A stretch of DNA of 14,033 nucleotides from the UHGV virus genome UHGV-0124904. One strand, 5' to 3'. Below are positions 2,106 through 14,033 of this stretch, one piece after another. Made by a program: the position numbers and the translations under genes. Position 1 is the first letter of the stretch. Every line of letters starts with the position of its first letter. The notes under the pieces are model-generated. The model searched no databases. It saw nothing but the letters and a program-made list of their open reading frames with translations, and was not told the origin of the DNA. This DNA is from a virus.

Positions 2106-3326
2106 TTACGCACCGCCACCAGCAGCAGGCGCAGTGAAGGATCCGTAGATGAAAGCTTCCGGGCGTTTCACCGCCAGCGCCAGGCGCTCTTCGCAGCGAA
2201 TCGAGATCATGTTTTTCTCGAAGTCGTCGGCGTTCTCAGTGGAGATCACCACGTTGGCATCTTCACGGTCGAACAGCTGGGCAGCGGCGTTGAATGCACC
2301 GGTAAGGAACTTGCCCTGGAATGCGGCAGCTTCGGTCGCCACCACCGGCAGGCCCCACAGGGTTGGCCCGGTCAGGGCCGCCGGGTTCGCCAGGATATAG
2401 CGGCCCAGCGTATCCTTGGTGAGTTCAATCTTCGCCCAGTCAATGAAGTGCAGGACGTGGCCGGAAGCCGGGAAGCGCGCCAGCTGTGCCTGTAGCATCG
2501 CGAGGCGCAGATCGTCGATACCGTTCTGCTGCTCAACCGTAAAGGCAGCGTCGTATGCAGACGCCTGCGGCACGATGCCTTTCAGGTGCGCGCCGGTACC
2601 GTCGCCAAAGAGAATTTCCTGCTCTTCCACATACTTCAGTCCGTAACGCATCTCAGCATCAATGGTGGACTGCAGCTGAGCGAAATCGTCCAGGATCTGC
2701 TTGGACGCTTTGAACATGTGCGCGATGGTGGTCACCGGAGTGATCTGCGTGGCGAACTGGATATCGCTGTACGGCTTGGCGGTGCCTTCCGGCACGACTT
2801 TCGCCGCATTGGTGAATCCGGTCTGCTGCACCCAGAAGATGGCTGGCGCCGAGGTGCGGCCCGGAGCAATCAGATCCCGGATGAAGAGGCGCTGCTTCGG
2901 CGCGGTATCAATACCCGGCAGGCGCTGCGGCTCGACCACGCCGGTTGCCACGTCAGTGGAGATCAGCGCAGCATTAACCGGAACGCTGACGCGCTTGCCG
3001 CCTTCAACGCTTGCCGCGAAAGCTTTTAGCGCTTCACTGCTGATAACGGTCTGGCCGACGGTCTCGATAATTTTTGTAGCGCTGGCCAGCGGCATCTGAG
3101 CTACCTGCTGCTCAATTTCACCTACTGAAGATTTCAGCGACTTAAGCGCATCGTTCAGCGCATTGTGTTCAGTGGCAATTTTATCCACTGCCTCTTTGGT
3201 TTGCGCGGACAACTGACCAGAGCTTTTAGCCTCCTTCAGCGCGTCCTCGGCTTTCTGGCTGAAAGTGCCGGAAACTTCTTCCAGCTTCGCAGAAACTTTT
3301 TTCAGTAATTCGTTAACTTCAGACAT
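2106..3326 (-). CDS. Major capsid protein, HK97 fold, with N-terminal delta (scaffolding) domain
   Basis: 406 aa. First ~100 residues are a Lys/Glu/Ala-rich predicted coiled coil (delta domain), followed by a capsid-like body; follows the prohead protease gene and no separate scaffold gene is present. Confidence 0.9.
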   Translation of the reverse strand: MSEVNELLKKVSAKLEEVSGTFSQKAEDALKEAKSSGQLSAQTKEAVDKIATEHNALNDALKSLKSSVGEIEQQVAQMPLASATKIIETVGQTVISSEALKAFAASVEGGKRVSVPVNAALISTDVATGVVEPQRLPGIDTAPKQRLFIRDLIAPGRTSAPAIFWVQQTGFTNAAKVVPEGTAKPYSDIQFATQITPVTTIAHMFKASKQILDDFAQLQSTIDAEMRYGLKYVEEQEILFGDGTGAHLKGIVPQASAYDAAFTVEQQNGIDDLRLAMLQAQLARFPASGHVLHFIDWAKIELTKDTLGRYILANPAALTGPTLWGLPVVATEAAAFQGKFLTGAFNAAAQLFDREDANVVISTENADDFEKNMISIRCEERLALAVKRPEAFIYGSFTAPAAGGGA

Positions 3327-3335
3327 GGTCTTTCC

Positions 3336-4184
3336 TTATTGGCCGAACGCCGCCAGGGCGTCTTCAAGTTGTTTGATATTGTCAGGGTTGATTTCTTCGG
3401 TAGCGCCCGGCGTACCTTCAGGGATGGCAGCAGCGCCTGGCTTGCTGCCGGATAAGGCTTTAAGAAGTTTTCGACGCTCAGAGCGCGGCGTATCGGTTTT
3501 GGCCAGCAGCGCATCAAGCTTGCGCAGCGCCGCCGCCGGGCTGTCGTCGTCGTCAGCAATTTCATCAGCGGAGAGGAGGCTGTCAGCAAATCCTTTCGCC
3601 ACCGCGTCACTGCCGCCAATATAGGTTTCGCCGTCCATCATCTTTTCGACGGTGGCGGCATCAAGACCGCTGCGTGCCTGGTAGATATCGCTCATCGCTT
3701 TATCAAACGGCTCCATGTCAGCGGCGATCTGCGCCAGGTCGTGACGGTTACCCATCGCATAGACCCAGCAGTTGTGGATCATCAGGAATGCACCGCGCCC
3801 GATCTGCACGTCGTCACCGGCCATCGCGATGACCGACGCCGCCGACGCTGCCAGGCCCAGCACCTTCACAGTGACCCTGCCTTCGTACTCGCGCAGCAGG
3901 TTATAAATCGCAAGGCCCTCGAACATGTCGCCGCCGGGGCTGTTGATGTTGACCGTTACGTCAGCGCCATTAAGGGAGCGCAGCGCACCAGCAATGCGGC
4001 TGGCTGTCACCCCCTCCCCCCAGAAATCAGCGCCGATCACGTCGAAGATAGAAATGCTGTTGTCACCGTCCCGGGCCGCACGGATGCCACCGTTCCAGCG
4101 CTCCATTGCCGCAGCTGGCAGATCGGGTTTTTCGCGCGCAAAAGGTCGCCCCTCCGGCGCAGCCGGAAGGCTTTTAATCGTCAT
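3336..4184 (-). CDS. Prohead maturation protease, ClpP-like serine peptidase
   Basis: 282 aa with the ClpP-like signatures NINSPGGD, GLAASAASVIA (Ser region) and MIHN (His region); Ala/Lys-rich C-terminal extension; between portal and capsid genes. Confidence 0.85.
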   Translation of the reverse strand: MTIKSLPAAPEGRPFAREKPDLPAAAMERWNGGIRAARDGDNSISIFDVIGADFWGEGVTASRIAGALRSLNGADVTVNINSPGGDMFEGLAIYNLLREYEGRVTVKVLGLAASAASVIAMAGDDVQIGRGAFLMIHNCWVYAMGNRHDLAQIAADMEPFDKAMSDIYQARSGLDAATVEKMMDGETYIGGSDAVAKGFADSLLSADEIADDDDSPAAALRKLDALLAKTDTPRSERRKLLKALSGSKPGAAAIPEGTPGATEEINPDNIKQLEDALAAFGQ

Positions 4185-4192
4185 GGATACTC

Positions 4193-5497
4193 CTAAGCCG
4201 CCTGTTTCAGCGGGGACTGTTCGAAGGGGATGTCGGGGAATACGTGGTTATGGACCTGTCGCAGCGCGAAAGCCTGTGCTGCCTGGCTGTTTTGCTTCAG
4301 GTCTTCAAGCGGCGTCAGGTTGAGCTGCACCGTATAAAGATCGCCGCCCTCAATCGGTGGCATGTTCTCCAGGCGGCGCACGTCGTTACGGGACATCCAG
4401 CCGTTCTGCAGCGCACTGGTGTAGTACGCCGCCCGGCCAGCACTGTCGGCGCGCAGCAGGCCTTCTACCGAGAACTCGGCAAAGAGGTCCTCTTCACCAT
4501 TCAGCAGACAGCGGGAAATCTCCTGCTCAATATTCACCAGCAGCGGGCGCAGCGTGTGGGTCAGGAACTGGAGATTCATCCCCTCCAGGCTCGATGCCCA
4601 GCTGCTTTGCTTCGAAGTATGCCCGACCATAAACGGTGGTACGCGGAACCAGCGGCAAATTTCCTCAATACTGAATGAGCGACTTTCCAGCATCTGGGCA
4701 TCTTCAGGGTTCATGGTGACACCCTGATATTTCAGGCCGCCCTCAAGCACCATGATTTTTCCGGCGTTTTTGGAACCGGTAAACTTCGCCATATAACCGC
4801 GAAGTCTTTCCCGCTGATCTTCGTCCAGCGCATTGTCCGATGAGAGAAACCCGGAGCTTTGCAGGCCCTGTTCAAAAATCTTTGCAGCAGATTCTTCAAC
4901 TGCCATCGCGGAGCCGATTACATCCCGACCCGTCCTCATCGGCATCATGCCGCAGACACCATCGAGACCGAACCCACGGATGTGCATCAGGTTCTTTTCG
5001 GGAATAACGCGTTTCTTGCCATCCTCGGTGTACGTGTATTCCAGCCGCCCGGTATCAAGCCGCTTCACCACCATGTTCTGGGGCAGCAGTGGCACCAGCG
5101 ACACCAGCTTATTGCCGATAAACAGCTTCTCGACAAAGGCATTTCCGCGCAGGCAGATGCTGGCCACCACCATCAACATAAAGCGCGACGGCGTCATTTC
5201 CAGGTTGGGACGGCGACAAAGCACCTGGTAAACCGGATGGTTCTGCGCCAGCTTGCGCGAGCCATCAGCCTGTCGGGTGTAAATCTTAACCGGCAGCGTG
5301 GACACCGACTCGCTCAGAAGCCGGACGCAGGCCCAGACTGCCGAAAGCTGGATCGCCCGATCTGCCGTGACGACCTTGCCGCTGCTGCTCGTGCCGTACC
5401 ACTCCTGCCAGAACGTTCCGGTAGTCAGGCTGATGGGCACGCCCAGCCAGTTGAGCAGGGCACTTTTTACCTTGCCCGGCTGCTTACTTTTCTTCAT
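4193..5497 (-). CDS. Portal protein (HK97-family)
   Basis: 434 aa; 1-nt TGATG stop/start overlap with the large terminase gene; size and position between TerL and protease are canonical. Confidence 0.85.
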   Translation of the reverse strand: MKKSKQPGKVKSALLNWLGVPISLTTGTFWQEWYGTSSSGKVVTADRAIQLSAVWACVRLLSESVSTLPVKIYTRQADGSRKLAQNHPVYQVLCRRPNLEMTPSRFMLMVVASICLRGNAFVEKLFIGNKLVSLVPLLPQNMVVKRLDTGRLEYTYTEDGKKRVIPEKNLMHIRGFGLDGVCGMMPMRTGRDVIGSAMAVEESAAKIFEQGLQSSGFLSSDNALDEDQRERLRGYMAKFTGSKNAGKIMVLEGGLKYQGVTMNPEDAQMLESRSFSIEEICRWFRVPPFMVGHTSKQSSWASSLEGMNLQFLTHTLRPLLVNIEQEISRCLLNGEEDLFAEFSVEGLLRADSAGRAAYYTSALQNGWMSRNDVRRLENMPPIEGGDLYTVQLNLTPLEDLKQNSQAAQAFALRQVHNHVFPDIPFEQSPLKQAA

Positions 5498-7227
5498 CAG
5501 AAACCTACCATGATTGGATTTTCAAAGAAGCCGCTCAGATCCTGAGCATCATTACCACCATTGACCAGCATCCGGCTTTTAGCCGTAAACAGTGCAACCG
5601 GTCCGTCAATTTTGTTTTCAGGTGTGGACTTGTTCGGGAAGATGTTGTCGTTTTTGTCCGGCTTAACCGTGACGTTTGACATCATCCACCGCATTACGGG
5701 GTTGTCGTCATGGTGGAACTTGTTGCCGTAAATCTCGGCCTGCACTGATTTCATGGACTCAGAAAGGTTTTTGACCGTCTGTGCGACTTCCACCAGCGGC
5801 AAGCCTTCCTCCGCAAGTGACAGGCTGAACTGCACGGCGCTCCAGGGATCGAAAGCAATCTCCTTGATGTTCTCGCCCTTCACCCACTCCACAATGTCGG
5901 CTTTAATCATGCCGTGATCGATAACGTCCCCGTCAGTCAGCTCGAGATATCCGGCGTCGGCCCACTTCCTGTAAAGCTCTGCAATATGGGCTGGCGCTGT
6001 TTCCAGTCGCCCTTCCGGGATCCAGAAGCGTGGCTGCATATGAGTTTCACCTGCAGGATCGCGCCAGGCTTTCACCGCTGCACAAATATCAATTTTGTTG
6101 GCGAGGTCGACCCCCACCCACAGTGGCCACGCCTTACGCTCAGCTTCCGAAGCAATACCCGGCATTTTTGCCCAGCGGTCCATGTCCATCCAGGCGCTCT
6201 CAGCTGTTACCCAGATGTTCAGGTGCTTGGTAAAGAAGTTCGGTCGCGCCGCGACCTGCTCCTTTGCCTTTTTGGCAAGGCGGCGCATATCGTCCCAGCG
6301 CTTACAGATACCGAGGCCGGGGTTAGCTTTCGGCCAGTTGGCCTCGTCAAAAGGATCGTCGCCATCGTCGAGGGTATAAATCAGGGCAAAGTAGGTGTCA
6401 TCCTCCACCACGCCGCGCAGCACCTTGATGGCGTAATCCCGCTGCTCGTAACAGATGCCCTCTTTATTGGTACCCGCCGTCGTTATTGCGAAAAGCAGGG
6501 ACTGAAGGCGCGCACCGGTAGCTGTTTCCAGAACGTCCCACACGTCACGGGTACGGTGAGCGTGCAGCTCGTCGACAATGCCGCAATGTATATTCAGGCC
6601 GTCGAGGTTATTCGCATCGCTGGAGAGCGGCTCAAACTTAGAGGCCGAATGCTCCTGGTGAATGTTGAGCTTAACGTGACCAAAAAGACGCCCCAGCGTG
6701 CGGGGGGCTTTCTTGATCATGTTCTTGGCATCATCAAAAACAATCCGCGCCTGGTCCCGGGTCGTCGCAGCTGAGTAAACCTCAGCACCACCCTCGCCAT
6801 CAGCACCGGTCATATAAAGCCCGATACCAGACGAAAGTGTGGACTTAGCGTTTTTACGCGCCACCTCGTCATAAGCCGTGCGGAAGCGGCGCACCATGAC
6901 CGTGTCACCGTCATCATCGATCACAGCCAGGCCTGTCATCTCATCAATCAGCGGAACGACGAAACCAAAAATGTTGATCAGGATAAAAACGTGCCAGGCC
7001 ATCAGCGTGATCGGCTTGCCTGCCAGCGCCCCTTTAACGTGTGGGACGAAATTATAAAAATCGAGGATGTGCTGGGCGCGTTCCTCACTGAAGTAGATGC
7101 CGCGCCCAGGCCCATGCTCTAAATCATTAAGAAATCGCTGGCACGCCAGGCGCACCAGTTCGCCAGCAACAATCTCGCCAGACAGCACGCGCTCGGCGTA
7201 CTGAATACCTTCCGAAACCGTTGCCAT
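5497..7227 (-). CDS. Terminase large subunit
   Basis: 576 aa; Walker-A-like VARKNAKST followed by DGEGGAEVYSAATTRDQARIVF and a Walker-B-like GIVDELH, then a C-terminal nuclease-sized domain. Confidence 0.9.
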   Translation of the reverse strand: MATVSEGIQYAERVLSGEIVAGELVRLACQRFLNDLEHGPGRGIYFSEERAQHILDFYNFVPHVKGALAGKPITLMAWHVFILINIFGFVVPLIDEMTGLAVIDDDGDTVMVRRFRTAYDEVARKNAKSTLSSGIGLYMTGADGEGGAEVYSAATTRDQARIVFDDAKNMIKKAPRTLGRLFGHVKLNIHQEHSASKFEPLSSDANNLDGLNIHCGIVDELHAHRTRDVWDVLETATGARLQSLLFAITTAGTNKEGICYEQRDYAIKVLRGVVEDDTYFALIYTLDDGDDPFDEANWPKANPGLGICKRWDDMRRLAKKAKEQVAARPNFFTKHLNIWVTAESAWMDMDRWAKMPGIASEAERKAWPLWVGVDLANKIDICAAVKAWRDPAGETHMQPRFWIPEGRLETAPAHIAELYRKWADAGYLELTDGDVIDHGMIKADIVEWVKGENIKEIAFDPWSAVQFSLSLAEEGLPLVEVAQTVKNLSESMKSVQAEIYGNKFHHDDNPVMRWMMSNVTVKPDKNDNIFPNKSTPENKIDGPVALFTAKSRMLVNGGNDAQDLSGFFENPIMVGF

Positions 7228-7230
7228 TCA

Positions 7231-7728
7231 TCATTTGCGCTTTTTAAGAAATTCATCCAGTGGATCGGCCTCAGCCGGGCCTTTAGCGCCAACCTTGGAC
7301 CGGCTGGCCGGGGTCATGCCGAATTCAGCGAGCATTGCCCTGATGCGCTTCCACGCATCGGCTTTCATTACTGCCGCCGGGTGCGGCTTAATCATCCTGA
7401 TTTCCCGCTCTTTCCCTTCGTCCGGTTCATCCTCGCTGTAGACGGCGTAGGTGTAACCTTCCCGCTCTAACGTCTCGCAGTGATTCCGGTACTCTGTGTA
7501 AGCCTCGATCAGCAGTTCAAGTGCTTTACCGTCCAGGGTGGTCATCACCCCGACAGCATCAAGCTCTTCGCCAATTCGCTTAAACCAGTACTTCCCCATC
7601 TTGTCGAAATGCTTCGGAACTGGGGGGACCCCAGAAGCGGGTTTTGGCTCGTCTTTGTTGACAGCTCGTTTTGATGGGTTCCCCTTCACCAAAGCCAGAT
7701 GTGTCGGGGTTTTCGGTGGTCCTGGCAT
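7231..7728 (-). CDS. Terminase small subunit (P27-family-like)
   Basis: 165 aa, Pro/Lys-rich N-terminus and C-terminal EFGMTPASRSK motif typical of P27-type small terminases; ends 3 nt before the TerL start; AGGAG 9 nt upstream of the ATG. Confidence 0.8.
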   Translation of the reverse strand: MPGPPKTPTHLALVKGNPSKRAVNKDEPKPASGVPPVPKHFDKMGKYWFKRIGEELDAVGVMTTLDGKALELLIEAYTEYRNHCETLEREGYTYAVYSEDEPDEGKEREIRMIKPHPAAVMKADAWKRIRAMLAEFGMTPASRSKVGAKGPAEADPLDEFLKKRK

Positions 7729-7920
7729 AATCGAAAACTCCTATTAATCGATGGTGGGGATCCCCATAAAAAAGTTTTCTAACCTGCGGCGGTGTGAAAA
7801 AAGGTTAGGCGGCGGTCCTTAGCAGTCAGAGGCCTGAACTTTCGACCCGCCCTCCCCTGTTGATGAGAATCGATATCATTCACCCGGAAATGATTGCATT
7901 TGAAATCATTTTACTTTCAT
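7729..7920. promoter_or_regulatory. Candidate cos / packaging-recognition and promoter region upstream of the small terminase gene
   Basis: 192-bp non-coding gap. GCGGCGGT occurs twice (7787-7794, 7809-7816), each preceded by CTAACC or its complement GGTTAG and an A6 run. An AT-rich 7-bp inverted repeat AATGATT..AATCATT lies at about 7889-7912. The HNH-then-TerS context is typical of cos phages. Confidence 0.25.
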
Positions 7921-8121
7921 TCAGTCGAGGTGAAAGTCATCGCTGAGGTTGCGCCGCCGCGCGCTGCTGGCATTGTGCGGGCAGGCGCTGGAGTTATGGC
8001 CTGACTGGCCGTAGTAACCGCAGCGCAGGTTCGCACGGCGGGCTGAGCCTCCCCATGTCTTTGGGCAATTTGCTACGGTGTGCAGCGTCGAGCCGCAGTA
8101 GGTGCAACGCGTATAGCTCAT
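7921..8121 (-). CDS. Small tandem zinc-knuckle-like (CCHC) protein, function unknown
   Basis: 66-aa ORF with ATGA overlap onto the HNH stop. Unit 1 CTYCGSTLHTVANCP fits C-x2-C-x4-H-x4-C; unit 2 CGYYGQSGHNSSACP has the same spacing with Tyr replacing the second Cys. Confidence 0.5.
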   Translation of the reverse strand: MSYTRCTYCGSTLHTVANCPKTWGGSARRANLRCGYYGQSGHNSSACPHNASSARRRNLSDDFHLD

Positions 8122-8468
8122 CGGGTTCTCTCCGTTGCGGTCTTGCGCTTATGGCATGGCCAGCACAGCGATTCGAGGTTGCTGTCGTCGTCTGTCCCGC
8201 CGTGAGCTCTCGGGATAATGTGGTCCACCGTTTCCGCTGGGCGTGGTCTGCTGTTGCGCAGGCACTGCTGGCAGATGTGTCGATCACGCTTAAGGATGCG
8301 GGCACGGATGATGTCCCACTTACTGCCGTAGCCACGCTGGTGGCGGCTCAGGCCGCGCTGATGCTGCTGCCACCCTTCGTTACGGTGGGTTTCGCAGTAG
8401 CCAGAACGATCCGTAGTTGTGCCAGAGCAACCTCGCTTACGGCATGCTCTGGGAATAGCTGCGGGCAT
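8118..8468 (-). CDS. HNH endonuclease (packaging-associated)
   Basis: 116 aa; N-terminal Cys cluster (CRKRGCSG...YCETH) and HNH core VDHIIPRAHGGTDDDSNLESLCWPCHKRKT; located just upstream of TerS as in HK97-like cos phages. Confidence 0.9.
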   Translation of the reverse strand: MPAAIPRACRKRGCSGTTTDRSGYCETHRNEGWQQHQRGLSRHQRGYGSKWDIIRARILKRDRHICQQCLRNSRPRPAETVDHIIPRAHGGTDDDSNLESLCWPCHKRKTATERTR

Positions 8469-8480
8469 GGTTGTCGCTCC

Positions 8481-8510
8481 AAAAAAAAGCCACCAGCAGA
8501 TGCCAGTGGC
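8481..8510 (-). terminator. Intrinsic terminator downstream of the 88-aa orphan gene
   Basis: Hairpin GCCAC(8489-8493)...GTGGC(8506-8510) with a 12-nt loop, followed on the minus strand by T8 (plus A8 at 8481-8488). Confidence 0.5.
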
Positions 8511-8532
8511 TATTGTTCAAACCTGTTACTTT

Positions 8533-8799
8533 TTAATAGCGCCGAAACCATTGAGGACATTCCAAATCCTCACGAAGATTCTCCAGCATATAAAAGCAGA
8601 ACTGGTTAATAGCTTCCGTGGCACTTAGTTCGGAGGGGATCCTTTCGCTTGCATAAATTGCATCTTGTATGGTGCTAAATATGCCAGTGGCACTATAAAT
8701 ATGCGCCAATTTACCTTCAGGATCTTGCCGAATGACGTTAGTGTTATTGCTCAATACGATCGTTTGTACTCCCCAAAGAAACAGCTCTTGTTTTGTCAT
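8533..8799 (-). CDS. Hypothetical small protein (AT-rich cargo gene)
   Basis: Track ORF 8533..8814 begins at a TTG; the ATG at 8799 (MTKQELFLWGV...) has AAAGGAG 5 nt upstream, so I call 88 aa. No family recognised. Confidence 0.5.
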   Translation of the reverse strand: MTKQELFLWGVQTIVLSNNTNVIRQDPEGKLAHIYSATGIFSTIQDAIYASERIPSELSATEAINQFCFYMLENLREDLECPQWFRRY

Positions 8800-8916
8800 G
8801 CTCACTCCTTTCAATGTTGAAAAAACAATTTAACAGTTTGGGGAATAAAAAGTACTTGGGGTTTGTCACGCACTATCACAGGCACTCAGTGAATGCCTGC
8901 TGTAATGCCTTAACCC

Positions 8917-8949
8917 CTACAGGGGATATTTATGATTTATCCCCTGTAG
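8917..8949. repeat. Perfect 11-bp inverted repeat with 11-bp AT-rich spacer
   Basis: CTACAGGGGAT (8917-8927) / ATTTATGATTT / ATCCCCTGTAG (8939-8949). No flanking T-run, so not a terminator; candidate operator or RNA stem-loop. Confidence 0.6.
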
Positions 8950-8980
8950 CCATTACGATGGGTCTACCCATGGCGATGGC

Positions 8981-9006
8981 AATAAAAAACCGCACGTAGG
9001 CGGTTT
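8981..9006 (-). terminator. Intrinsic terminator downstream of the 71-aa orphan gene
   Basis: 7-bp stem AAACCGC(8987-8993) / ACGTAG / GCGGTTT(9000-9006); minus strand continues TTTATT; 8 nt after the gene stop at 9014. Confidence 0.6.
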
Positions 9007-9013
9007 AGTATCA

Positions 9014-9229
9014 TCATTTCACTTTGAGTGAAGCTTGAATTGCATCAGCAAGAGCCTCGATGCCACCAGCAACATGCGCTAAGTCCCATCTTGCCTTTGC
9101 ATCATTGCTGTCAGCAGTATTGGCGGACACTGAAGCTTTAGCAATCTCCAAAGCCGCTTGAACTGCAATCAAGCGTTTTGCTTTATCGTCAGTAGCTATT
9201 GGTCCATTCTTGTAATAATTCTCTAACAT
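9014..9229 (-). CDS. Hypothetical small Ala-rich protein (AT-rich cargo gene)
   Basis: 71 aa; AAGGAAGGG about 7 nt upstream of the ATG; has its own downstream terminator. No family recognised. Confidence 0.5.
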   Translation of the reverse strand: MLENYYKNGPIATDDKAKRLIAVQAALEIAKASVSANTADSNDAKARWDLAHVAGGIEALADAIQASLKVK

Positions 9230-9343
9230 AACAATTCCCTTCCTTACCCTACCAACATGGCGGGTTACAAAATGTAAATGGGGATTGCATTACAGATTTC
9301 AAGGTCATTATCGAAGCCCCTCAGTGAAGAGCTTCTGTTATGC

Positions 9344-9754
9344 CTAGCAATCAGCGTCCGGGCGCGCAATAGCTCGACAAGCCCACATACAGGCTTCCTG
9401 CATTTTGGTGCGCGCGATCGACAAACTACGCAGAGCATCATCAATTTCACACGCCTGCTCAGTACTCAACATCGCTGGCCCATTACGGAGAGCCAACAGC
9501 TCACCGCGTTCGGTATCGAGCAGGCTGCAGAAGTAACGACTGACGCCCTTCATACGGTTCATGCGCTCAATGTCGCCAGGTGTTAACGTGCGGTAGCCCT
9601 TAACGGTGCTGCCATCCTGCGGTTGTGCTTCGTTCATTGATTTACCTGTGATTGATGGGCCAGCTTCGCGACGCTTCACAGCGTGGCTAACCGTGTTGTG
9701 CAGAGTGGAGAACATCATCAGGCGCTCTTCTTTAAAGCGCCTGGGGCTGCTCAC
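9344..9754 (-). CDS. Hypothetical protein translationally coupled to Rz1
   Basis: 136 aa; ATGA overlap with the Rz1 stop; C-terminus has a Cys cluster (CMWACRAIARPDADC). Start uncertain (internal Met candidates). No family recognised. Confidence 0.4.
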   Translation of the reverse strand: MSSPRRFKEERLMMFSTLHNTVSHAVKRREAGPSITGKSMNEAQPQDGSTVKGYRTLTPGDIERMNRMKGVSRYFCSLLDTERGELLALRNGPAMLSTEQACEIDDALRSLSIARTKMQEACMWACRAIARPDADC

Positions 9755-9990
9755 TTAACGGCGTTATACCAAGCCTGCCAGCGATACTTATCGAGGCGCA
9801 GCTGGCGCAGGCATTGCGCAGTTTCGCTATCAGCCTGCAGATCATCATCGCTATTGGTGCCAGCGTTACTTCCCTTGCACGGCTTCTGCATCAAATCCGC
9901 TGATGGAGTTGGCAGCGTCGATAGCCTGTTGCCGCAGCCGGACAGACTCATCATCAAAAGCACAAACGGTACGATTCGGATCCTGGACAT
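9751..9990 (-). CDS. Outer-membrane spanin (Rz1-like lipoprotein)
   Basis: 79 aa starting inside the Rz gene in another frame; signal peptide MSRIRIVPFVLLMMSLSGC with lipobox LSGC; extends 115 nt past the Rz stop (overlapped architecture). Confidence 0.7.
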   Translation of the reverse strand: MSRIRIVPFVLLMMSLSGCGNRLSTLPTPSADLMQKPCKGSNAGTNSDDDLQADSETAQCLRQLRLDKYRWQAWYNAVK

Positions 9991-10231
9991 ATTTCACCAC
10001 GTCGCGGGTTATGGTTCGGTAAATAATCCGGCCTTCGTCGCTGGCTTGAGCCGCCTTTTGTTCGACAGGCTGAAATGCCTTTTCTGCTTTGGCGCGCTTA
10101 GCAGCGGCAAGCCCGTTGATTTGTTCAGCGTGGGCGTACCAGCCATTCCGGTACCGTAGCTCGCCATAACCAATAGCAAGCAGCATGCCCACGAGAGCGA
10201 TCTGCAGTATCGCTCGAAGGCTAAAGGTCAT
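9866..10231 (-). CDS. Inner-membrane spanin (Rz-like)
   Basis: 121 aa; N-terminal transmembrane segment LRAILQIALVGMLLAIGYG followed by a charged Ala/Lys/Glu-rich region; immediately downstream of the endolysin with 11-nt overlap. Confidence 0.75.
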   Translation of the reverse strand: MTFSLRAILQIALVGMLLAIGYGELRYRNGWYAHAEQINGLAAAKRAKAEKAFQPVEQKAAQASDEGRIIYRTITRDVVKYVQDPNRTVCAFDDESVRLRQQAIDAANSISGFDAEAVQGK

Positions 10232-10724
10232 GTTTGCTCTCCGCCATGCACATCGAGCGCTCCATCTCTCGCCGGTTCTGGAGGCCTTTCCACTTCATAC
10301 CACCAGCGTAAACCCAGCGCCGCATCTCTTCGCACGCGCCGTCGTGATCGCCTTTATTCAGTTTGCGCAGCAGTGTGGACTTCGAGAACGCATCAGAACC
10401 AACGTTAAAGACAAAGCTGTAAAGTGCAGCACGCTGATATTCACCCAGAGGTACTTTGACAAGATCGTCTACCGTGCGTTTTGCTGGCTGAAGGTCTTTC
10501 CACAGCAATTGGTCACACTCGCGATCGGTATACTTCTTCCCTCTCACGATGTCGCGGCCCGTATGGCCATCGCAGACAGTCCACACGCCGGCGACGTCTT
10601 TATACGCTTCGTACTTCCGCCCCTCTACGCCATCCTGCCCACCGAGAAACAGCGAGGCGATCAGCATGGCACCGCCACCAGCAGCGGCGATGAGTTTGTT
10701 ACGCAGGCTACTGGTCATTGGCAT
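10221..10724 (-). CDS. SAR endolysin (T4-lysozyme-like muramidase, phage 21 R-like)
   Basis: 167 aa; Gly/Ala-rich signal-anchor-release domain LIAAAGGGAMLIASLFLGG; catalytic E-x8-D-x5-T spacing in VEGRKYEAYKDVAGVWTV; close resemblance to P21 R as recalled (GVWTVC.GHTG, ALYSFV.NVG, STLLRK.N.GD, RRW.YAGG..WKGL). Confidence 0.9.
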   Translation of the reverse strand: MPMTSSLRNKLIAAAGGGAMLIASLFLGGQDGVEGRKYEAYKDVAGVWTVCDGHTGRDIVRGKKYTDRECDQLLWKDLQPAKRTVDDLVKVPLGEYQRAALYSFVFNVGSDAFSKSTLLRKLNKGDHDGACEEMRRWVYAGGMKWKGLQNRREMERSMCMAESKHDL

Positions 10725-10964
10725 TTATTCATCTCCGACTTTAACTGCAGGTCCGTACTTCTCAAGCGCCTTAACCTGTGCATTGGCGACCTTGCGTTTG
10801 AAATACCAGTTAATGAGCCCGGTAACGATTATCCCGGCAATGCCAGCCAGCACACCGACGGCGCTCCACTCATCAGGACTTAGTTTTGTCAGAACACCGT
10901 TCAGGATGGTGCCGCCGGAAGTGCCTAACGCGACACCGGTTACGAGTTTGCTCATGAGGGACAT
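10725..10964 (-). CDS. Pinholin (class II holin, S21-like), possible dual start
   Basis: Resembles the P21 pinholin (GVALGTSGG..LSPDEWSAVGVL..WYFKRK). Track start is a GTG at 10973 abutting GGAGG; the ATG at 10964 has GGAGGT 7 nt upstream and a second ATG follows 9 nt later (M-S-L-M-S-K), a holin/antiholin-like dual-start arrangement. Confidence 0.8.
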   Translation of the reverse strand: MSLMSKLVTGVALGTSGGTILNGVLTKLSPDEWSAVGVLAGIAGIIVTGLINWYFKRKVANAQVKALEKYGPAVKVGDE

Positions 10965-11099
10965 GTACCTCACCTCCGATTATGTCGGGGCGCTTTGTGA
11001 AGTGATTGAAGAAAAGGTTGTTACAGAAACTGATAGCAAAAACTTTAACCACACTGCGGGTCATCGTTGCTCTGGCTTCAAACTTTTGCAGTGAATGCT

Positions 11100-11135
11100 A
11101 AATGCAAAAAAGCCCTGGCAGATGCCAAGGCTTGA
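11100..11135 (-). terminator. Intrinsic terminator between the accessory operon and the lysis cassette
   Basis: Stem AGCCcTGGC(11111-11119) / AGAT / GCCAaGGCT(11124-11132) with one mismatch; minus strand continues TTTTTTGCATTT. Confidence 0.65.
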
Positions 11136-11162
11136 AGATCAGTATTTGAGATTTATATTCAG

Positions 11163-11588
11163 TTAAGCTGCAGAGGAAACAGTTGGAACGCAGTACTTTT
11201 GGTAATAATTTTTTATTACTGGCCTAACATGAGGTGACAGATTGAACCCACCCAGGATGCGTTGAAACGTTCCTTCGCTGCAAGGATCATGAATTCGTAT
11301 GTCCCCAGCACTGACTCGCTGGATAACCGAATCAGCACCAAAAATTTCTGCTCGCCTATAAAAGACATAACTTGGATGCCGAACAAAAGGATGATCACCA
11401 ACATTCAACAGACAAGAAGAGTCGGGTTCGATTCCGTCAGCTATAGAGGTTAAATTAACGGCAAGGAAAGATTCTTTTGCAAGTTTGGGATAAAATACGG
11501 GGTCGTTACAAATGAAGAACAAATGCTCCTTCGAACCAGAAAGGAGCATAATCGTGCCTTTTTGTACTGGGCTGAAGTCCGCTGTCAT
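11163..11588 (-). CDS. Hypothetical protein, candidate toxin/effector partner of the Panacea-domain gene
   Basis: 141 aa; ATGA start/stop overlap with the upstream Panacea-domain gene; GC-poor; no family recognised. Internal Met14 is an alternative start. Confidence 0.6.
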   Translation of the reverse strand: MTADFSPVQKGTIMLLSGSKEHLFFICNDPVFYPKLAKESFLAVNLTSIADGIEPDSSCLLNVGDHPFVRHPSYVFYRRAEIFGADSVIQRVSAGDIRIHDPCSEGTFQRILGGFNLSPHVRPVIKNYYQKYCVPTVSSAA

Positions 11589-12160
11589 TTCAATCCGTAA
11601 GCAATTGAATCTAGTTCGGAGAATTCTCTCATCCTGTCAGATAAATGTCTAACAAGTTCTTCAGGTTTTCCAAGCGCCCGGAACACATTTTCAGGATTTA
11701 TTGTAAACGCACCGCCACGTGGATCGGTCCATTCAGGACATTTTGAATGGGTATAATCCCTGATCTCCCATTTACTCATCTTACCGAAGCTTGCATAGAC
11801 GGCATCTAGAATTGAAATCTCAGCCTCACTGAGTTCATCTAAATCATCACGACTTAAGCTGTCACATAAAAGCTTAAGCTCATAATTGTCAGCATCAGAA
11901 ATCCAATTTTTCCAACCTTCTTCGCCCGTTTCTGTACCATTCATGAGGTCTAAAGAACGAGATAAGACTGGACCATGCGGCATGGCCACCATGCGGTCAC
12001 CTGTGATAGGCTCACCGAAACGGTCCATTGATTCTCTATCAGAGAGGTACATCAATTTCATGAGCTTAAGGTATGGCATGCGTCCACCGCCTTTCGACAG
12101 TAGATAGGCGGCCATCTGAGCCACTCTTTCTTCGCAAAACATATTAGCCCCCCTACTCAT
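11585..12160 (-). CDS. Panacea (DUF4065)-domain protein, likely PanA/SocA-type antitoxin
   Basis: Hallmark LKLMKLMYLSDRESMDRFGEPITGDRMVAMPHGPVLSRSL (K-L-x-K-L-x-Y...G-x-P-I...GPV pattern) plus a C-terminal ...W...DYTHS..PEW segment. Probable true start is Met7 (ATG at 12142..12140, AGGGGGG 6 nt upstream), giving 185 aa. Confidence 0.7.
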   Translation of the reverse strand: MSRGANMFCEERVAQMAAYLLSKGGGRMPYLKLMKLMYLSDRESMDRFGEPITGDRMVAMPHGPVLSRSLDLMNGTETGEEGWKNWISDADNYELKLLCDSLSRDDLDELSEAEISILDAVYASFGKMSKWEIRDYTHSKCPEWTDPRGGAFTINPENVFRALGKPEELVRHLSDRMREFSELDSIAYGLK

Positions 12161-12337
12161 ATACGATCACTACTACTATCAGCAGTATAGTCTTCAACTT
12201 AATTTTCTGTTTTCCAAATTACGCCGAATGCAAAATTTCTCTTGACTCTCTCCAAGCTCTTGCCTGGCCTAGCTTTGATGATTGTCAATACACGTTGCAT
12301 TACTAACGAGCGTCTTTGTACCACAATCATACACGTT

Positions 12338-12487
12338 TAATCCACAGGCATCTGTGGATAACCATTTGAACAAGCGTCGATCCTTATCCACAGAAACTGG
12401 AAATATCCACAGAGAGCAGCACTAAAAACAAAACTACCAATAACTCAAGGGGAAAAGCTGTGCATAAACACACCTCACTTATACACA
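12338..12487. promoter_or_regulatory. Cluster of DnaA-box consensus sites (TTATNCACA)
   Basis: Perfect 9/9 matches at 12353-12361 (minus, TTATCCACA), 12384-12392 (plus, TTATCCACA), 12459-12467 (minus, TTATGCACA) and 12479-12487 (plus, TTATACACA); 8/9 matches at 12338-12346 and 12403-12411. Includes palindrome TCCACAG-GCAT-CTGTGGA at 12341-12358. Confidence 0.6.
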
Positions 12488-12663
12488 TATGCACAATTTT
12501 GGGCTAAAAGAATTTTTGTTCGGTTTTGCCTATTGATAAATATTGCAAAAATTTAGCTCACAATTTCTTAAATCCTTTGCGTTCTAATAATTCATAAGCG
12601 AGGAAAAGTAACTTTTCTCTAAAAATCAGAGGAAGGGATTTTCAAGATGTACTGTTATTTACC

Positions 12664-12698
12664 AAATAAAAAAACCCGCTCAGGGCGGGCTTTTTAAC
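12664..12698. terminator. Bidirectional intrinsic terminator downstream of the Q-position gene (tR'-like for the minus strand)
   Basis: Stem CCCGC(12675-12679) / TCAGG / GCGGG(12685-12689), flanked by A8 on one side (12667-12674) and T5 on the other (12691-12695), so a U-run follows the hairpin on either strand. Confidence 0.7.
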
Positions 12699-12782
12699 TG
12701 TGAACATACAATGCCCATCGTTAACGTTAAATTTACACAAAAACGGCAACATTGCAAGTAACGTGAACCGAAAATATGAGAT

Positions 12783-13616
12783 TTAGAGCAAACTTTGCAC
12801 GCTGGTTACTTTCTTGAGTTCGGTATCTGCGTTGCTCTCCTCCTGAAAGCATTTCGTCACCAGACTTTCATAAAACGGCTTCCAGCTGTATCGCCAGGTA
12901 CGATCAGGAAGGCTGTCCAGTTCGGCCAGAACGCCGCGATACGCTACTGATGATTTCGGTCTGCTGTATCCTCGCCCCTCACAGCGTTTGCACTCCTTAT
13001 AAACCGGCGCGCCCTGCAACTCAGTTTGCTTTCGGTCGAGGGTTTGACCAGATCCGCCACACTGGCAGCGCTTACTGATCTGGCCGGTTCCGTTGCACTT
13101 GCCGCACAGCTGGTGGTCCACATCCTTTACCTCGCGGAAAACTTCAAAATCAGATGGAGACTGGCCCAGATCCTTGGCAAATTGAGGCAGGCGCATCGTG
13201 TAATGGCTTTTGGTGATCACACTGGTTCTGGTAATGAAGCCCTTGCCCCGGCATTTCTGGCAATTGATACTGTCAGCAGCTGATGAGGCGTAATCCTTGA
13301 ATGCGAATCTGGCGAGGATCCGCATACAGAGAGGGAATTTTTTGCCAGCTGCTTTACGTACGGCCATTGGTGCGTGCTGCTTGGCGTATTCTGTCAGCCA
13401 GTTGATAGCGGCTTCTTTATCCTGTGGGCTGATGCCAGCCTTCCCCAGATACATGGCAAGACCGATCCCGGCGTCGGCTTGGGTCATGCCCAGCGCCGCC
13501 ATGATGTCGGTTACCGTTAACTGATCGCCCGCGGTTGCGCGCACGCTATCAGAGATGTGCATCCCTTTCGGTGCAAAAAACTTTAAAACTCCGTCCAGAT
13601 TCATAGCGTTCTCCAC
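12783..13616 (-). CDS. Putative late-gene antiterminator (Q-position protein) with DnaJ-type CxxCxGxG zinc-finger repeats
   Basis: 277 aa with CQKCRGKG, CGKCNGTG, CQCGGSG and CKRCEGRG repeats. Assigned mainly by position (after a nin-region-like nuclease, before a terminator and the lysis genes); sequence-level identity to Q was not verified. Confidence 0.45.
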   Translation of the reverse strand: MENAMNLDGVLKFFAPKGMHISDSVRATAGDQLTVTDIMAALGMTQADAGIGLAMYLGKAGISPQDKEAAINWLTEYAKQHAPMAVRKAAGKKFPLCMRILARFAFKDYASSAADSINCQKCRGKGFITRTSVITKSHYTMRLPQFAKDLGQSPSDFEVFREVKDVDHQLCGKCNGTGQISKRCQCGGSGQTLDRKQTELQGAPVYKECKRCEGRGYSRPKSSVAYRGVLAELDSLPDRTWRYSWKPFYESLVTKCFQEESNADTELKKVTSVQSLL

Positions 13617-13621
13617 TCCGT

Positions 13622-13945
13622 CTACGCCAGTGCGCCGATGGCCAGCGCCCGGTCTAATGTTTTCAACAGCAGCTCCGGCTGCGTGCCGTACTTCGCTTCA
13701 AATGCCACAGCGTCAGCGTGCAATTCGTCGTGATGCTCTCTGCACAGAGGTATCACAAACAGGTCGTGTGCCTTTGTACCCATTCCACCCTGCCCGTGGC
13801 CAATCAGGTGGTGGGGGTCGTCAGCTTGCTTGTTACAGCAGACGCACGGCTGGGCCTTAACCCATCTCGTGTATTTCTCATTCACCCAGCGGCGACGCTT
13901 GGGTTTAAGCATGAAGGATTCCGGCGTCTCTGGGTCAACCTTCAT
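13622..13945 (-). CDS. YbcO/NinG-like small Cys/His-rich putative nuclease (nin-region protein)
   Basis: PCVCCNKQ...HHLIGHGQGGMGTKAHDLFVIPLCREHHDELH resembles the YbcO-family motif as recalled. Track start is a GTG at 13951; an ATG lies at 13945. The frame stays open to the window edge (14033), so the true start may lie outside the window. Confidence 0.5.
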   Translation of the reverse strand: MKVDPETPESFMLKPKRRRWVNEKYTRWVKAQPCVCCNKQADDPHHLIGHGQGGMGTKAHDLFVIPLCREHHDELHADAVAFEAKYGTQPELLLKTLDRALAIGALA

Positions 13946-14033
13946 TGCCACTATCTTTTTCGCTTTCTCCTGTACCAGTTGTTTGGCGGGTAATGCCGGA
14001 ACAATATCGCTTTCACGTGTTACCGACTGGTGG

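Follow-up and report, generated by a model that had tools for sequence, protein, structure and literature searches.

A hairpin-delimited array of small accessory genes in the post-lysis slot of an Escherichia coli lambdoid prophage

Lambdoid and HK97-like phages carry morons, a concept of the Hendrix laboratory for an extra gene that lies, with its own promoter and terminator, between conserved genes. Arrays of small, mostly promoterless genes are known from integrons, where they are bounded by attC sites, imperfect hairpins with conserved ends and a variable middle, while stable hairpins placed after stop codons in polycistronic operons are found among REP/BIME-type intercistronic elements and the RNase III sites of the T7 early mRNA. 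In T4-type phages, the PeSL cassettes described by Arbiol et al. (2010, PMC2839356) pair a strong sigma-70-like promoter with a transcription-terminating stem-loop and lie in hyperplastic regions. Proteins of the Acb2 family, in turn, are hexameric sponges that inhibit the cyclic-oligonucleotide-based defence CBASS, with some members inhibiting Thoeris or Pycsar (PMC12393519). Here we analyse a 14,033-nucleotide (nt) stretch of the virus genome UHGV-0124904 (the window), in which three small genes, an Acb2 homologue and two genes for proteins of 71 and 88 amino acids (aa), lie between lysis and packaging genes and are set apart by copies of a conserved 45-nt hairpin.

The locus is a moron-type cargo region between lysis and packaging, a familiar kind, and its hairpin takes up known ideas (PeSL, REP, attC-like cassette boundaries) in a modified form and a new setting. 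Every gene of the window lies on the minus strand, and in the direction of transcription the order is Rz/Rz1, Acb2, hairpin copy B, the 71-aa gene, terminator T1, hairpin H2, hairpin copy A, a leader, the 88-aa gene, terminator T2, the HNH gene and terminase (Table 1). We regard the structural description of the locus, as three small accessory genes with conserved hairpins between them, as highly probable. The reading that we favour, to which we assign a probability of roughly 0.6, is that these are three cassettes of an accessory array in a post-lysis slot, late-transcribed and hairpin-delimited, the proteins of which are likely to be counter-defence or host-modulating factors.

An initial annotation of this DNA had described an AT-rich island of two small genes, situated in the late operon between the lysis and packaging modules. 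That location agrees with our gene assignments, which place lysis genes (9751–10973) on one side and the packaging genes HNH, TerS and TerL on the other, and the dip in G+C content is borne out at 0.40–0.47 against 0.55–0.64 in the flanks. In 300-nt windows, the fraction is 0.40–0.47 at 8401–9450, 0.56–0.64 at 7801–8550 and 0.54–0.56 beyond 9300. Both genes of the proposed island are real; the Acb2 gene at 9344–9637 and the delimiting hairpins were missing from that description.

A covariance model of the hairpin, R1, scores copy A at 64.1 bits (E = 1.2e-16) and copy B at 56.6 bits (E = 2e-14) and finds nothing else convincing in the window. The computed RNA folds have energies of −23.7 kcal/mol (z −6.0) for copy A and −14.6 kcal/mol (z −3.2) for copy B. 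The two copies have a common cap, UUCACUGAG, and common flanks, GCAUUACAG and GAUAAUG, and differ in their stems (CAGGCA:UGCCUG versus AAGCUC:GGGCUU). The fold starts with a lower stem of three to six pairs; above an internal loop, which is 2x2 in copy A, follows an upper stem of 10 bp, and at the tip three cap pairs close an ACU triloop. Among 36 distinct copies, 94% of the cells in the 13-pair structure are paired, compared with 29–48% when the partners are slid, and seven pairs change on both sides; none of 500 shuffles attains the covariation score. The search pattern had fixed the cap and the lower stem's 3' arm, which accounts for part of the invariance there; it left the 5' arm and the upper stem free.

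This 45-nt hairpin appears to be undescribed so far. An Rfam cmscan of 7700–10000 (E up to 10) returned three weak unrelated matches, none overlapping either copy, and a literature search for the loop and core sequences produced a single phage match, to an unrelated promoter table for Kp34-like phages. Several known kinds of element were considered and set aside. By eye, the hairpin does not qualify as a sigma-70 promoter, as the GATAAT of its 3' arm lacks a −35 partner at a spacing of 16–19 nt; a TG precedes this GATAAT in A-type copies only. The conserved positions do not fit a sigma-54 promoter, a LexA box, an integration host factor site or a solitary CRISPR-repeat mimic of type I-E or I-F. 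After the stem there is no U tract, and a terminator scan does not list the element. The stretch 8870–8914, which is 96–98% identical to the 3' flanks that DUF2560 genes have in prophages of Klebsiella and E. coli, amid dissimilar surroundings, was also considered as a remnant of a DUF2560 gene; it is instead the hairpin, which in relatives comes directly after the DUF2560 stop codon, and the window holds no DUF2560 coding sequence.

The hairpin pattern is present in at least 120 stretches of viral contigs, and its placement is regular. In 105 of 130 sites, an open frame on the same strand terminates at the hairpin or shortly ahead of it, in most cases no more than a few nt from where the hairpin starts. 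A homologue of a lysis gene lies within 4 kb upstream on the same strand in 78 of 106 hairpin sites and downstream or on the other strand in none of the 106. The genes on either side fall into 41 upstream and 48 downstream clusters, which include DUF2560, Acb2, Rha, KilA-N, GnsAB, N4 gp49-like, HNH and small terminase genes as well as members of both the 71-aa and the 88-aa families. Applied to relatives, the covariance model detects two or three copies in each post-lysis region, as a rule on either side of DUF2560. Known phages also carry the element: phi80 (right after rha), phiP27 (just before HNH), ST64B, mEp390, cdtI and ZF40. No feature is annotated over it in the phi80 and phiP27 records and none is listed for ST64B or cdtI in the match tables; in mEp390 and ZF40 it lies under a coding sequence (CDS).

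A pattern scan of whole genomes at the species level gave mostly chance matches in unrelated phyla; counting as true copies those that have both the stem and the 5' flank, all eight that could be mapped to an organism are from Enterobacterales, with Serratia, Citrobacter, Mangrovibacter, Enterobacter, Leclercia, Erwinia and Kosakonia as hosts. One A-type hairpin, 100% identical, stands in a record labelled as Elizabethkingia phage EKP1 (OM284015.1, 35841–35883), which would place it in Bacteroidota. Because all true copies mapped to an organism are from Enterobacterales, the EKP1 record may be mislabelled or contaminated. Related prophages of E. coli and Klebsiella with the same HNH and terminase genes hold varying small genes between Rz and HNH, among them Acb2, DUF2560, PHROG 5901 members, YfbU and several unnamed genes. 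The post-lysis slot is thus a cargo site, and its cassette boundaries carry a conserved, covarying 45-nt hairpin that is specific to the post-lysis late operon of temperate Enterobacterales phages.

What the hairpin does can be approached from the company it keeps. When sites are paired by cores of 95% identity or more, 1082 of the 1295 pairs are unrelated in both 60-nt flanks and another 190 have just one flank in common. Near-identical cores amid unrelated flanks are what would be expected of a mere recombination scar or a selfish miniature mobile repeat, with the cargo open reading frames (ORFs) as inconsequential hitch-hikers, and such an origin would also suit the DUF2560 3'-flank remnant in a window without a DUF2560 gene and the finding that one edge of the 88-aa indel described below falls at the element's 5' end. 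We nevertheless consider it very improbable. The element is strictly oriented to late transcription and strictly placed after stop codons, its compensatory stem covariation and invariant cap and base argue for selection on a folded, strand-specific molecule, and the cargo proteins are under purifying selection. From the co-orientation, the post-stop placement and the stem covariation, that molecule is most simply RNA.

As part of the array that we favour, the hairpin in RNA could be a 3'-end protecting or processing site for each cistron, and/or in DNA it could offer a common homology patch for cassette exchange. The second role is suggested by its identity within unrelated flanks and its position at indel edges, as with the PeSLs of T4-type phages. 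The PeSLs (PMC2839356) resemble it further as conserved stem-loops between small non-essential genes in a plastic region, at the boundaries of indels and replacements; the hairpin described here differs in having no detectable promoter or U tract, in its residence in the late operon of temperate enterobacterial phages and in its invariant cap and base.

REP/BIME elements and T7 RNase III sites share the post-stop placement with our hairpin, in which a 2x2 internal loop separates a lower stem from an upper one of 10 bp; the hairpin has no sequence similarity to them, is shorter than classical RNase III substrates and is phage-specific rather than chromosomal. Integron attC arrays share small genes bounded by imperfect hairpins with conserved ends, but no integron integrase is nearby, the 45-nt element falls well below the length of most attC sites and has none of their core motifs, and its orientation is tied to transcription of the phage operon. 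That the cap and base do not vary suggests that the element has a specific binding partner. One could imagine a sequence-specific element of 'cassette punctuation', recognised by a dedicated factor of phage or host, that sets both the expression and the exchange of cargo in a slot serving as a counter-defence array, the 71-aa and 88-aa proteins being new anti-defence factors; this fuller version we think unlikely.

The related E. coli prophage L009 has 16 bp in place of the 411 bp at 8499–8909: by blastn, homology covers 8910–9638 and resumes at 8498, and for this reason the 88-aa unit is, from the alignment, a discrete 411-bp indel. The adjoining block that L009 does share (729 bp, 91% identity) runs from Acb2 through a hairpin, the 71-aa gene and T1 to a second hairpin. 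The window, Cronobacter and Pectobacterium have the same build of unit, a 45-nt hairpin (degenerate in Pectobacterium), a leader of about 70 nt, the ORF and its own terminator. In Cronobacter it occupies the same slot, in Pectobacterium it is at a prophage end beside host genes, and in Cupriavidus the family occurs in a long run of tiny ORFs beside an R2K ATP-grasp gene. The unit of hairpin, leader, ORF and terminator is therefore a discrete cassette that stands in different contexts in other genera, and the 88-aa family moves more freely than PHROG 5901, the family of the 71-aa protein.

The encoded protein is conserved. The 88-aa ORF, which starts at an ATG with a Shine-Dalgarno (SD) sequence, AAGGAG, 6 nt before it, is the conserved form of a 93-aa ORF with a TTG start (8533–8814). 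We found 25 homologues at 46–93% identity, all of about 88–100 aa, and a profile search extended the family to 175 cluster representatives. Eighteen columns are invariant, many of them polar, including K3, Q12, T13, N18, N21, S36, S51, N74, R76 and W84. An AlphaFold2 (AF2) model has four helices at a confident predicted local distance difference test score (pLDDT) of 88.5, and the isoelectric point (pI) is 4.8. Against Cronobacter, the gene has synonymous differences in 19 codons and non-synonymous differences in 6, and on this count it is under purifying selection.

Three variants of the 88-aa family were noted in passing. Tandem duplicates of the domain occur in P0133/P0138 (~200 aa), and it forms the C-terminus of larger proteins without Pfam domains (P0233/P0237/P0265, 467–509 aa). 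One homologue, P0180 (171 aa), has an N-terminal MazE/AbrB domain; we discounted this fusion as a functional clue, as it is a single case and possibly a gene-calling artefact.

Both terminators assigned by the initial annotation (8981–9006 and 8481–8510) coincide with stems that we find at 9006–8987 and 8511–8488. T1 has a 7-bp stem followed by TTTATTG and an RNA fold of −8.5 kcal/mol; T2 has a 10-bp stem followed by TTTTTTT and folds at −16.3 kcal/mol (z −4.2). T1 is also present in L009, the same terminator as T2 follows the 88-aa homologue in Cronobacter, and the terminators seem to be shared modules too. After the Pectobacterium homologue (L136, ~4270–4300), we observed a terminator, AAACCGCCTACGTGCGGTTTCTTT, nearly identical to T1 of the window. 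Between T1 and hairpin copy A lies H2 (−19.8 kcal/mol, z −4.8), which recurs in L009 (~6240–6275) with one compensatory stem change; at ~960–990 of L023, an H2-like ...TGTAGGGG arm stands ahead of an A-type element.

These features invite comparison with classical morons, which would have their own promoter, at least for the 88-aa cassette, be expressed in the repressed prophage and benefit the lysogen through exclusion, defence or stress tolerance. The likeness is considerable: small extra genes between late modules, low G+C content (that of the 88-aa cassette is below its flanks), an own terminator and an 88-aa unit that is present or absent. The 88-aa cassette is bracketed by T1 and T2, hence insulated from read-through; its leader is conserved in three genera and includes a weak TGTTAAATT stretch that by eye resembles an extended −10 and may leave room for a weak or non-canonical promoter; and the Pectobacterium cassette sits, as mentioned, at a prophage end, next to host genes. 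A consensus scan of 7600–10300, however, finds no sigma-70-like promoter, and PADLOC gives no defence-model match. Neither protein has a membrane or signal segment, and both are small, acidic and soluble, which sets them apart from many exclusion proteins. Directly adjoining them is a gene for counter-defence rather than for defence, the 71-aa gene forms one block with that of Acb2, and a conserved hairpin is outside the definition of a moron. Classical moron behaviour is therefore, in our judgement, an unlikely account of the locus, and the earlier description of two independent moron-like units credits them with more independence than they show: the 88-aa unit is a discrete insertion, whereas the 71-aa gene has no terminator upstream and belongs to the block with Acb2.

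The Acb2 gene gives the array its functional context. Its product matches Pfam PF24729 (Acb2_Tad1_hairpin) at E = 1.4e-16 and 60.9 bits, against a cut-off of 27, and a phmmer search of the Protein Data Bank (PDB) retrieved T4 Vs.4 (7UQ2, 5e-7) and p26 of PaMx33 (8H2J, 7e-6). RefSeq labels an E. coli homologue as an Acb2/Tad1 domain protein, and we place the start at an internal ATG (9635–9637), in agreement with homologues of 97 aa. By these matches the product is an Acb2 homologue and a predicted cyclic-oligonucleotide sponge. In PaMx33 Acb2, Y11 stacks on the adenine of the ligand (PMC12393519). A conserved KGY motif in the protein of the window aligns to T4 Vs.4 in the HMMER alignment, and, judged from this alignment, its Tyr appears to correspond to Y11 of PaMx33. 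With Acb2 directly upstream, the AT-rich island is a three-gene accessory array in a counter-defence context. The likeness to the Acb2/Vs.4 sponges (8H2J, 7UQ2; PMC12393519) is confined to this adjoining gene; the 71-aa and 88-aa proteins have no sequence or profile similarity to Acb2.

The gene of the 71-aa protein shares its block with that of Acb2. The ORF is Ala-rich and has an ATG start with an SD sequence, AAGGAAGGG, about 8 nt before it. It matches phrog_5901 at E = 7.9e-20 over residues 1–71 and positions 1–70 of a 70-position profile; PHROG 5901 is a family without assigned function. There are 97 homologous clusters at 45–100% identity, and the family alignment has nine invariant columns (M1, Y5, R19, V23, A25, A26, A61, I64 and Q65). 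The AF2 model is a two-helix hairpin (helices 15–35 and 43–69, pLDDT 72). The initial annotation had proposed two small ORFs, each with a good SD sequence, and both are indeed present and conserved as coding sequences, and as proteins in many genomes. With a PHROG of 97 clusters on one side and 25 homologues with 175 profile representatives on the other, they are not the orphans that it took them for. In L009, the CDS of the 71-aa protein (9014–9229 versus 6001–6216) is 100% identical, compared with 91% for the shared block as a whole, which suggests either a very recent exchange of this gene alone or stronger constraint.

The position of this family raises the question of whether it is cargo at all. 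In E. coli, Klebsiella, Pantoea and Dickeya prophages, its members follow directly on the lysis cassette, behind Rz, Rz1 or the endolysin, and do so in phages with a P27-type TerS and HNH, in phages with the lambda-type GpA terminase and in a Dickeya prophage that has its lysis cassette close to its end. An auxiliary lysis or packaging factor, acting on lysis timing or on a cos/HNH-terminase step, would be found in such places. Related phages with the same lysis and packaging genes, on the other hand, lack the 71-aa gene or carry other genes in the slot, the gene being present or absent among related prophages; its product has no membrane segment; it is set off by the same cassette hairpins as Acb2, which is clear cargo; and the slot is a general cargo site with many unrelated genes. 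We judge a lysis or packaging role to be quite unlikely and treat the gene as one of the three cassettes of the array.

Sequence searches say little about what the 71-aa and 88-aa proteins do. The PHROGs search matched the 71-aa protein only (PHROG 5901) and gave nothing for the 88-aa protein, profile searches of the PDB with both families returned nothing below E = 0.2, a profile–profile comparison of the 88-aa with the 71-aa family was negative, and neither protein has sequence or fold similarity to known defence or anti-defence families. The homology and structure-prediction searches that had been suggested thus gave PHROG 5901 and helical models, and no known family or fold. The host-modulating, exclusion or anti-defence roles put forward in the initial annotation are accordingly conjecture drawn from the genomic context. 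From their size, acidity, conserved polar residues, cassette mobility and Acb2 neighbour, we tentatively suggest, at somewhat less than even odds, that both are small soluble binders countering a host function during lytic growth.

Several points weigh against the array as we read it. Neither protein matches Pfam, NCBIfam, PADLOC or PDB sequences, and profile tests of the 71-aa family against DUF2560 and Acb2, and of the 88-aa family against Acb2, were negative. The 71-aa family is not always alongside Acb2, and guilt by association is weak for want of a constant partner; its fixed place after the lysis genes might instead stem from a part in lysis. A simple stabiliser role does not explain why the hairpin's cap and base are invariant, and the negative promoter scan counts here as well.

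With these points in mind, a course of events can be proposed for the favoured array. During lytic growth, it would be transcribed with the lysis and head genes, the three accessory genes together. Polymerase modified by the antiterminator encoded upstream would read through T1 and T2, and both terminators would insulate the cassettes when antitermination is absent. Late timing would be sensible for a CBASS sponge if the trigger arises late in infection, and the 71-aa and 88-aa proteins, made alongside Acb2, would most likely bind a host or immune component.

The element that hosts the array is an HK97/P27-type lambdoid prophage of E. coli, and the genes of the window make up its late region. 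Positions 3014–14033 of the window are 99.98% identical to an E. coli assembly (L007, GCA_009798925.1), and metagenome contigs (L008, L010–L012) match shorter stretches at 99.97–99.99%. The features of the locus and its surroundings are collected in Table 1.

Table 1. Features of the window, in the order of transcription.
Feature	Position	Strand	Evidence or remark
Antiterminator (PF03589)	12783–13616	-	upstream of lysis genes
SocA/Panacea-domain gene, 191 aa	11585–12160	-	
141-aa gene, phrog_19071	11163–11588	-	
Holin	10725–10973	-	
Lysozyme	10221–10724	-	
Rz	9866–10231	-	
Rz1	9751–9990	-	
Three-gene accessory array (Acb2, 71-aa, 88-aa)	Acb2 gene at 9344–9637; 88-aa gene ends at 8533	-	
Acb2-family gene, 97 aa	9344–9637	-	Pfam and PDB sequence matches; directly upstream of the reported island
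45-nt hairpin copy B	9304–9348	-	model R1; starts at the Acb2 stop codon
71-aa gene, PHROG 5901, predicted helical hairpin	9014–9229	-	phrog_5901 full-length match
Terminator T1	8980–9006	-	terminator scan, fold; closes Acb2 + 71-aa block
Hairpin H2	8917–8953	-	fold; 12-bp stem, 9-nt loop, no U tract
45-nt hairpin copy A	8869–8913	-	model R1; 5' boundary of the 88-aa cassette
Extent of 88-aa cassette as indel versus L009	8499–8909	.	blastn
Leader of 88-aa gene, ~70 nt	8800–8868	-	sequence, cross-genus alignment; SD AAGGAG, TGTTAAATT stretch
88-aa gene, conserved acidic helical protein	8533–8799	-	homologue and profile searches
Terminator T2	8481–8511	-	terminator scan, fold; closes the 88-aa cassette, just before the HNH ribosome-binding site
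HNH endonuclease	8118–8468	-	
P27-family small terminase (TerS)	7231–7728	-	
Large terminase (TerL)	5497–7227	-	
Portal	4193–5497	-	
Protease	3336–4184	-	
Capsid	2106–3326	-	

Some further observations concern the neighbourhood of the array. A second island of low G+C content (0.34–0.46) extends across ~10950–12900, between the antiterminator and the holin. Within it, the SocA/Panacea-domain gene overlaps the 141-aa gene, and the pair (11163–12160) looks like a Panacea-type toxin–antitoxin or another cargo pair in a pre-lysis slot. On the packaging side, a 66-aa Cys/His-rich ORF at 7921–8121 on the minus strand, with a 4-nt overlap with the HNH stop codon, is also called in L009 and has weak zinc-knuckle and Rmf/CrpP-like matches. 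Since the phiP27 record annotates a cos site between HNH and TerS, that of the window phage is probably within 7729–8117. A 184-aa ORF on the plus strand (8055–8609), antisense to HNH and extending into the 88-aa gene, has been called automatically on several identical contigs; it overlaps the well-supported HNH gene, has no family match and is almost certainly spurious.

Should the hairpin prove to be only a stabiliser or a scar and the proteins to have no phenotype, this would be an ordinary moron region. As they stand, the two proteins are cheap and concrete candidates for anti-defence screens, being both uncharacterised, widespread (PHROG 5901 is present in thousands of Klebsiella and E. 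coli assemblies) and beside a proven type of counter-defence gene. The hairpin is a simple, searchable marker of the late-operon cargo slot in enterobacterial prophages and could serve to harvest accessory and anti-defence gene candidates systematically. It can also be used to test whether these phages shuffle their cargo by way of short conserved elements, as T4-type phages do with PeSLs.

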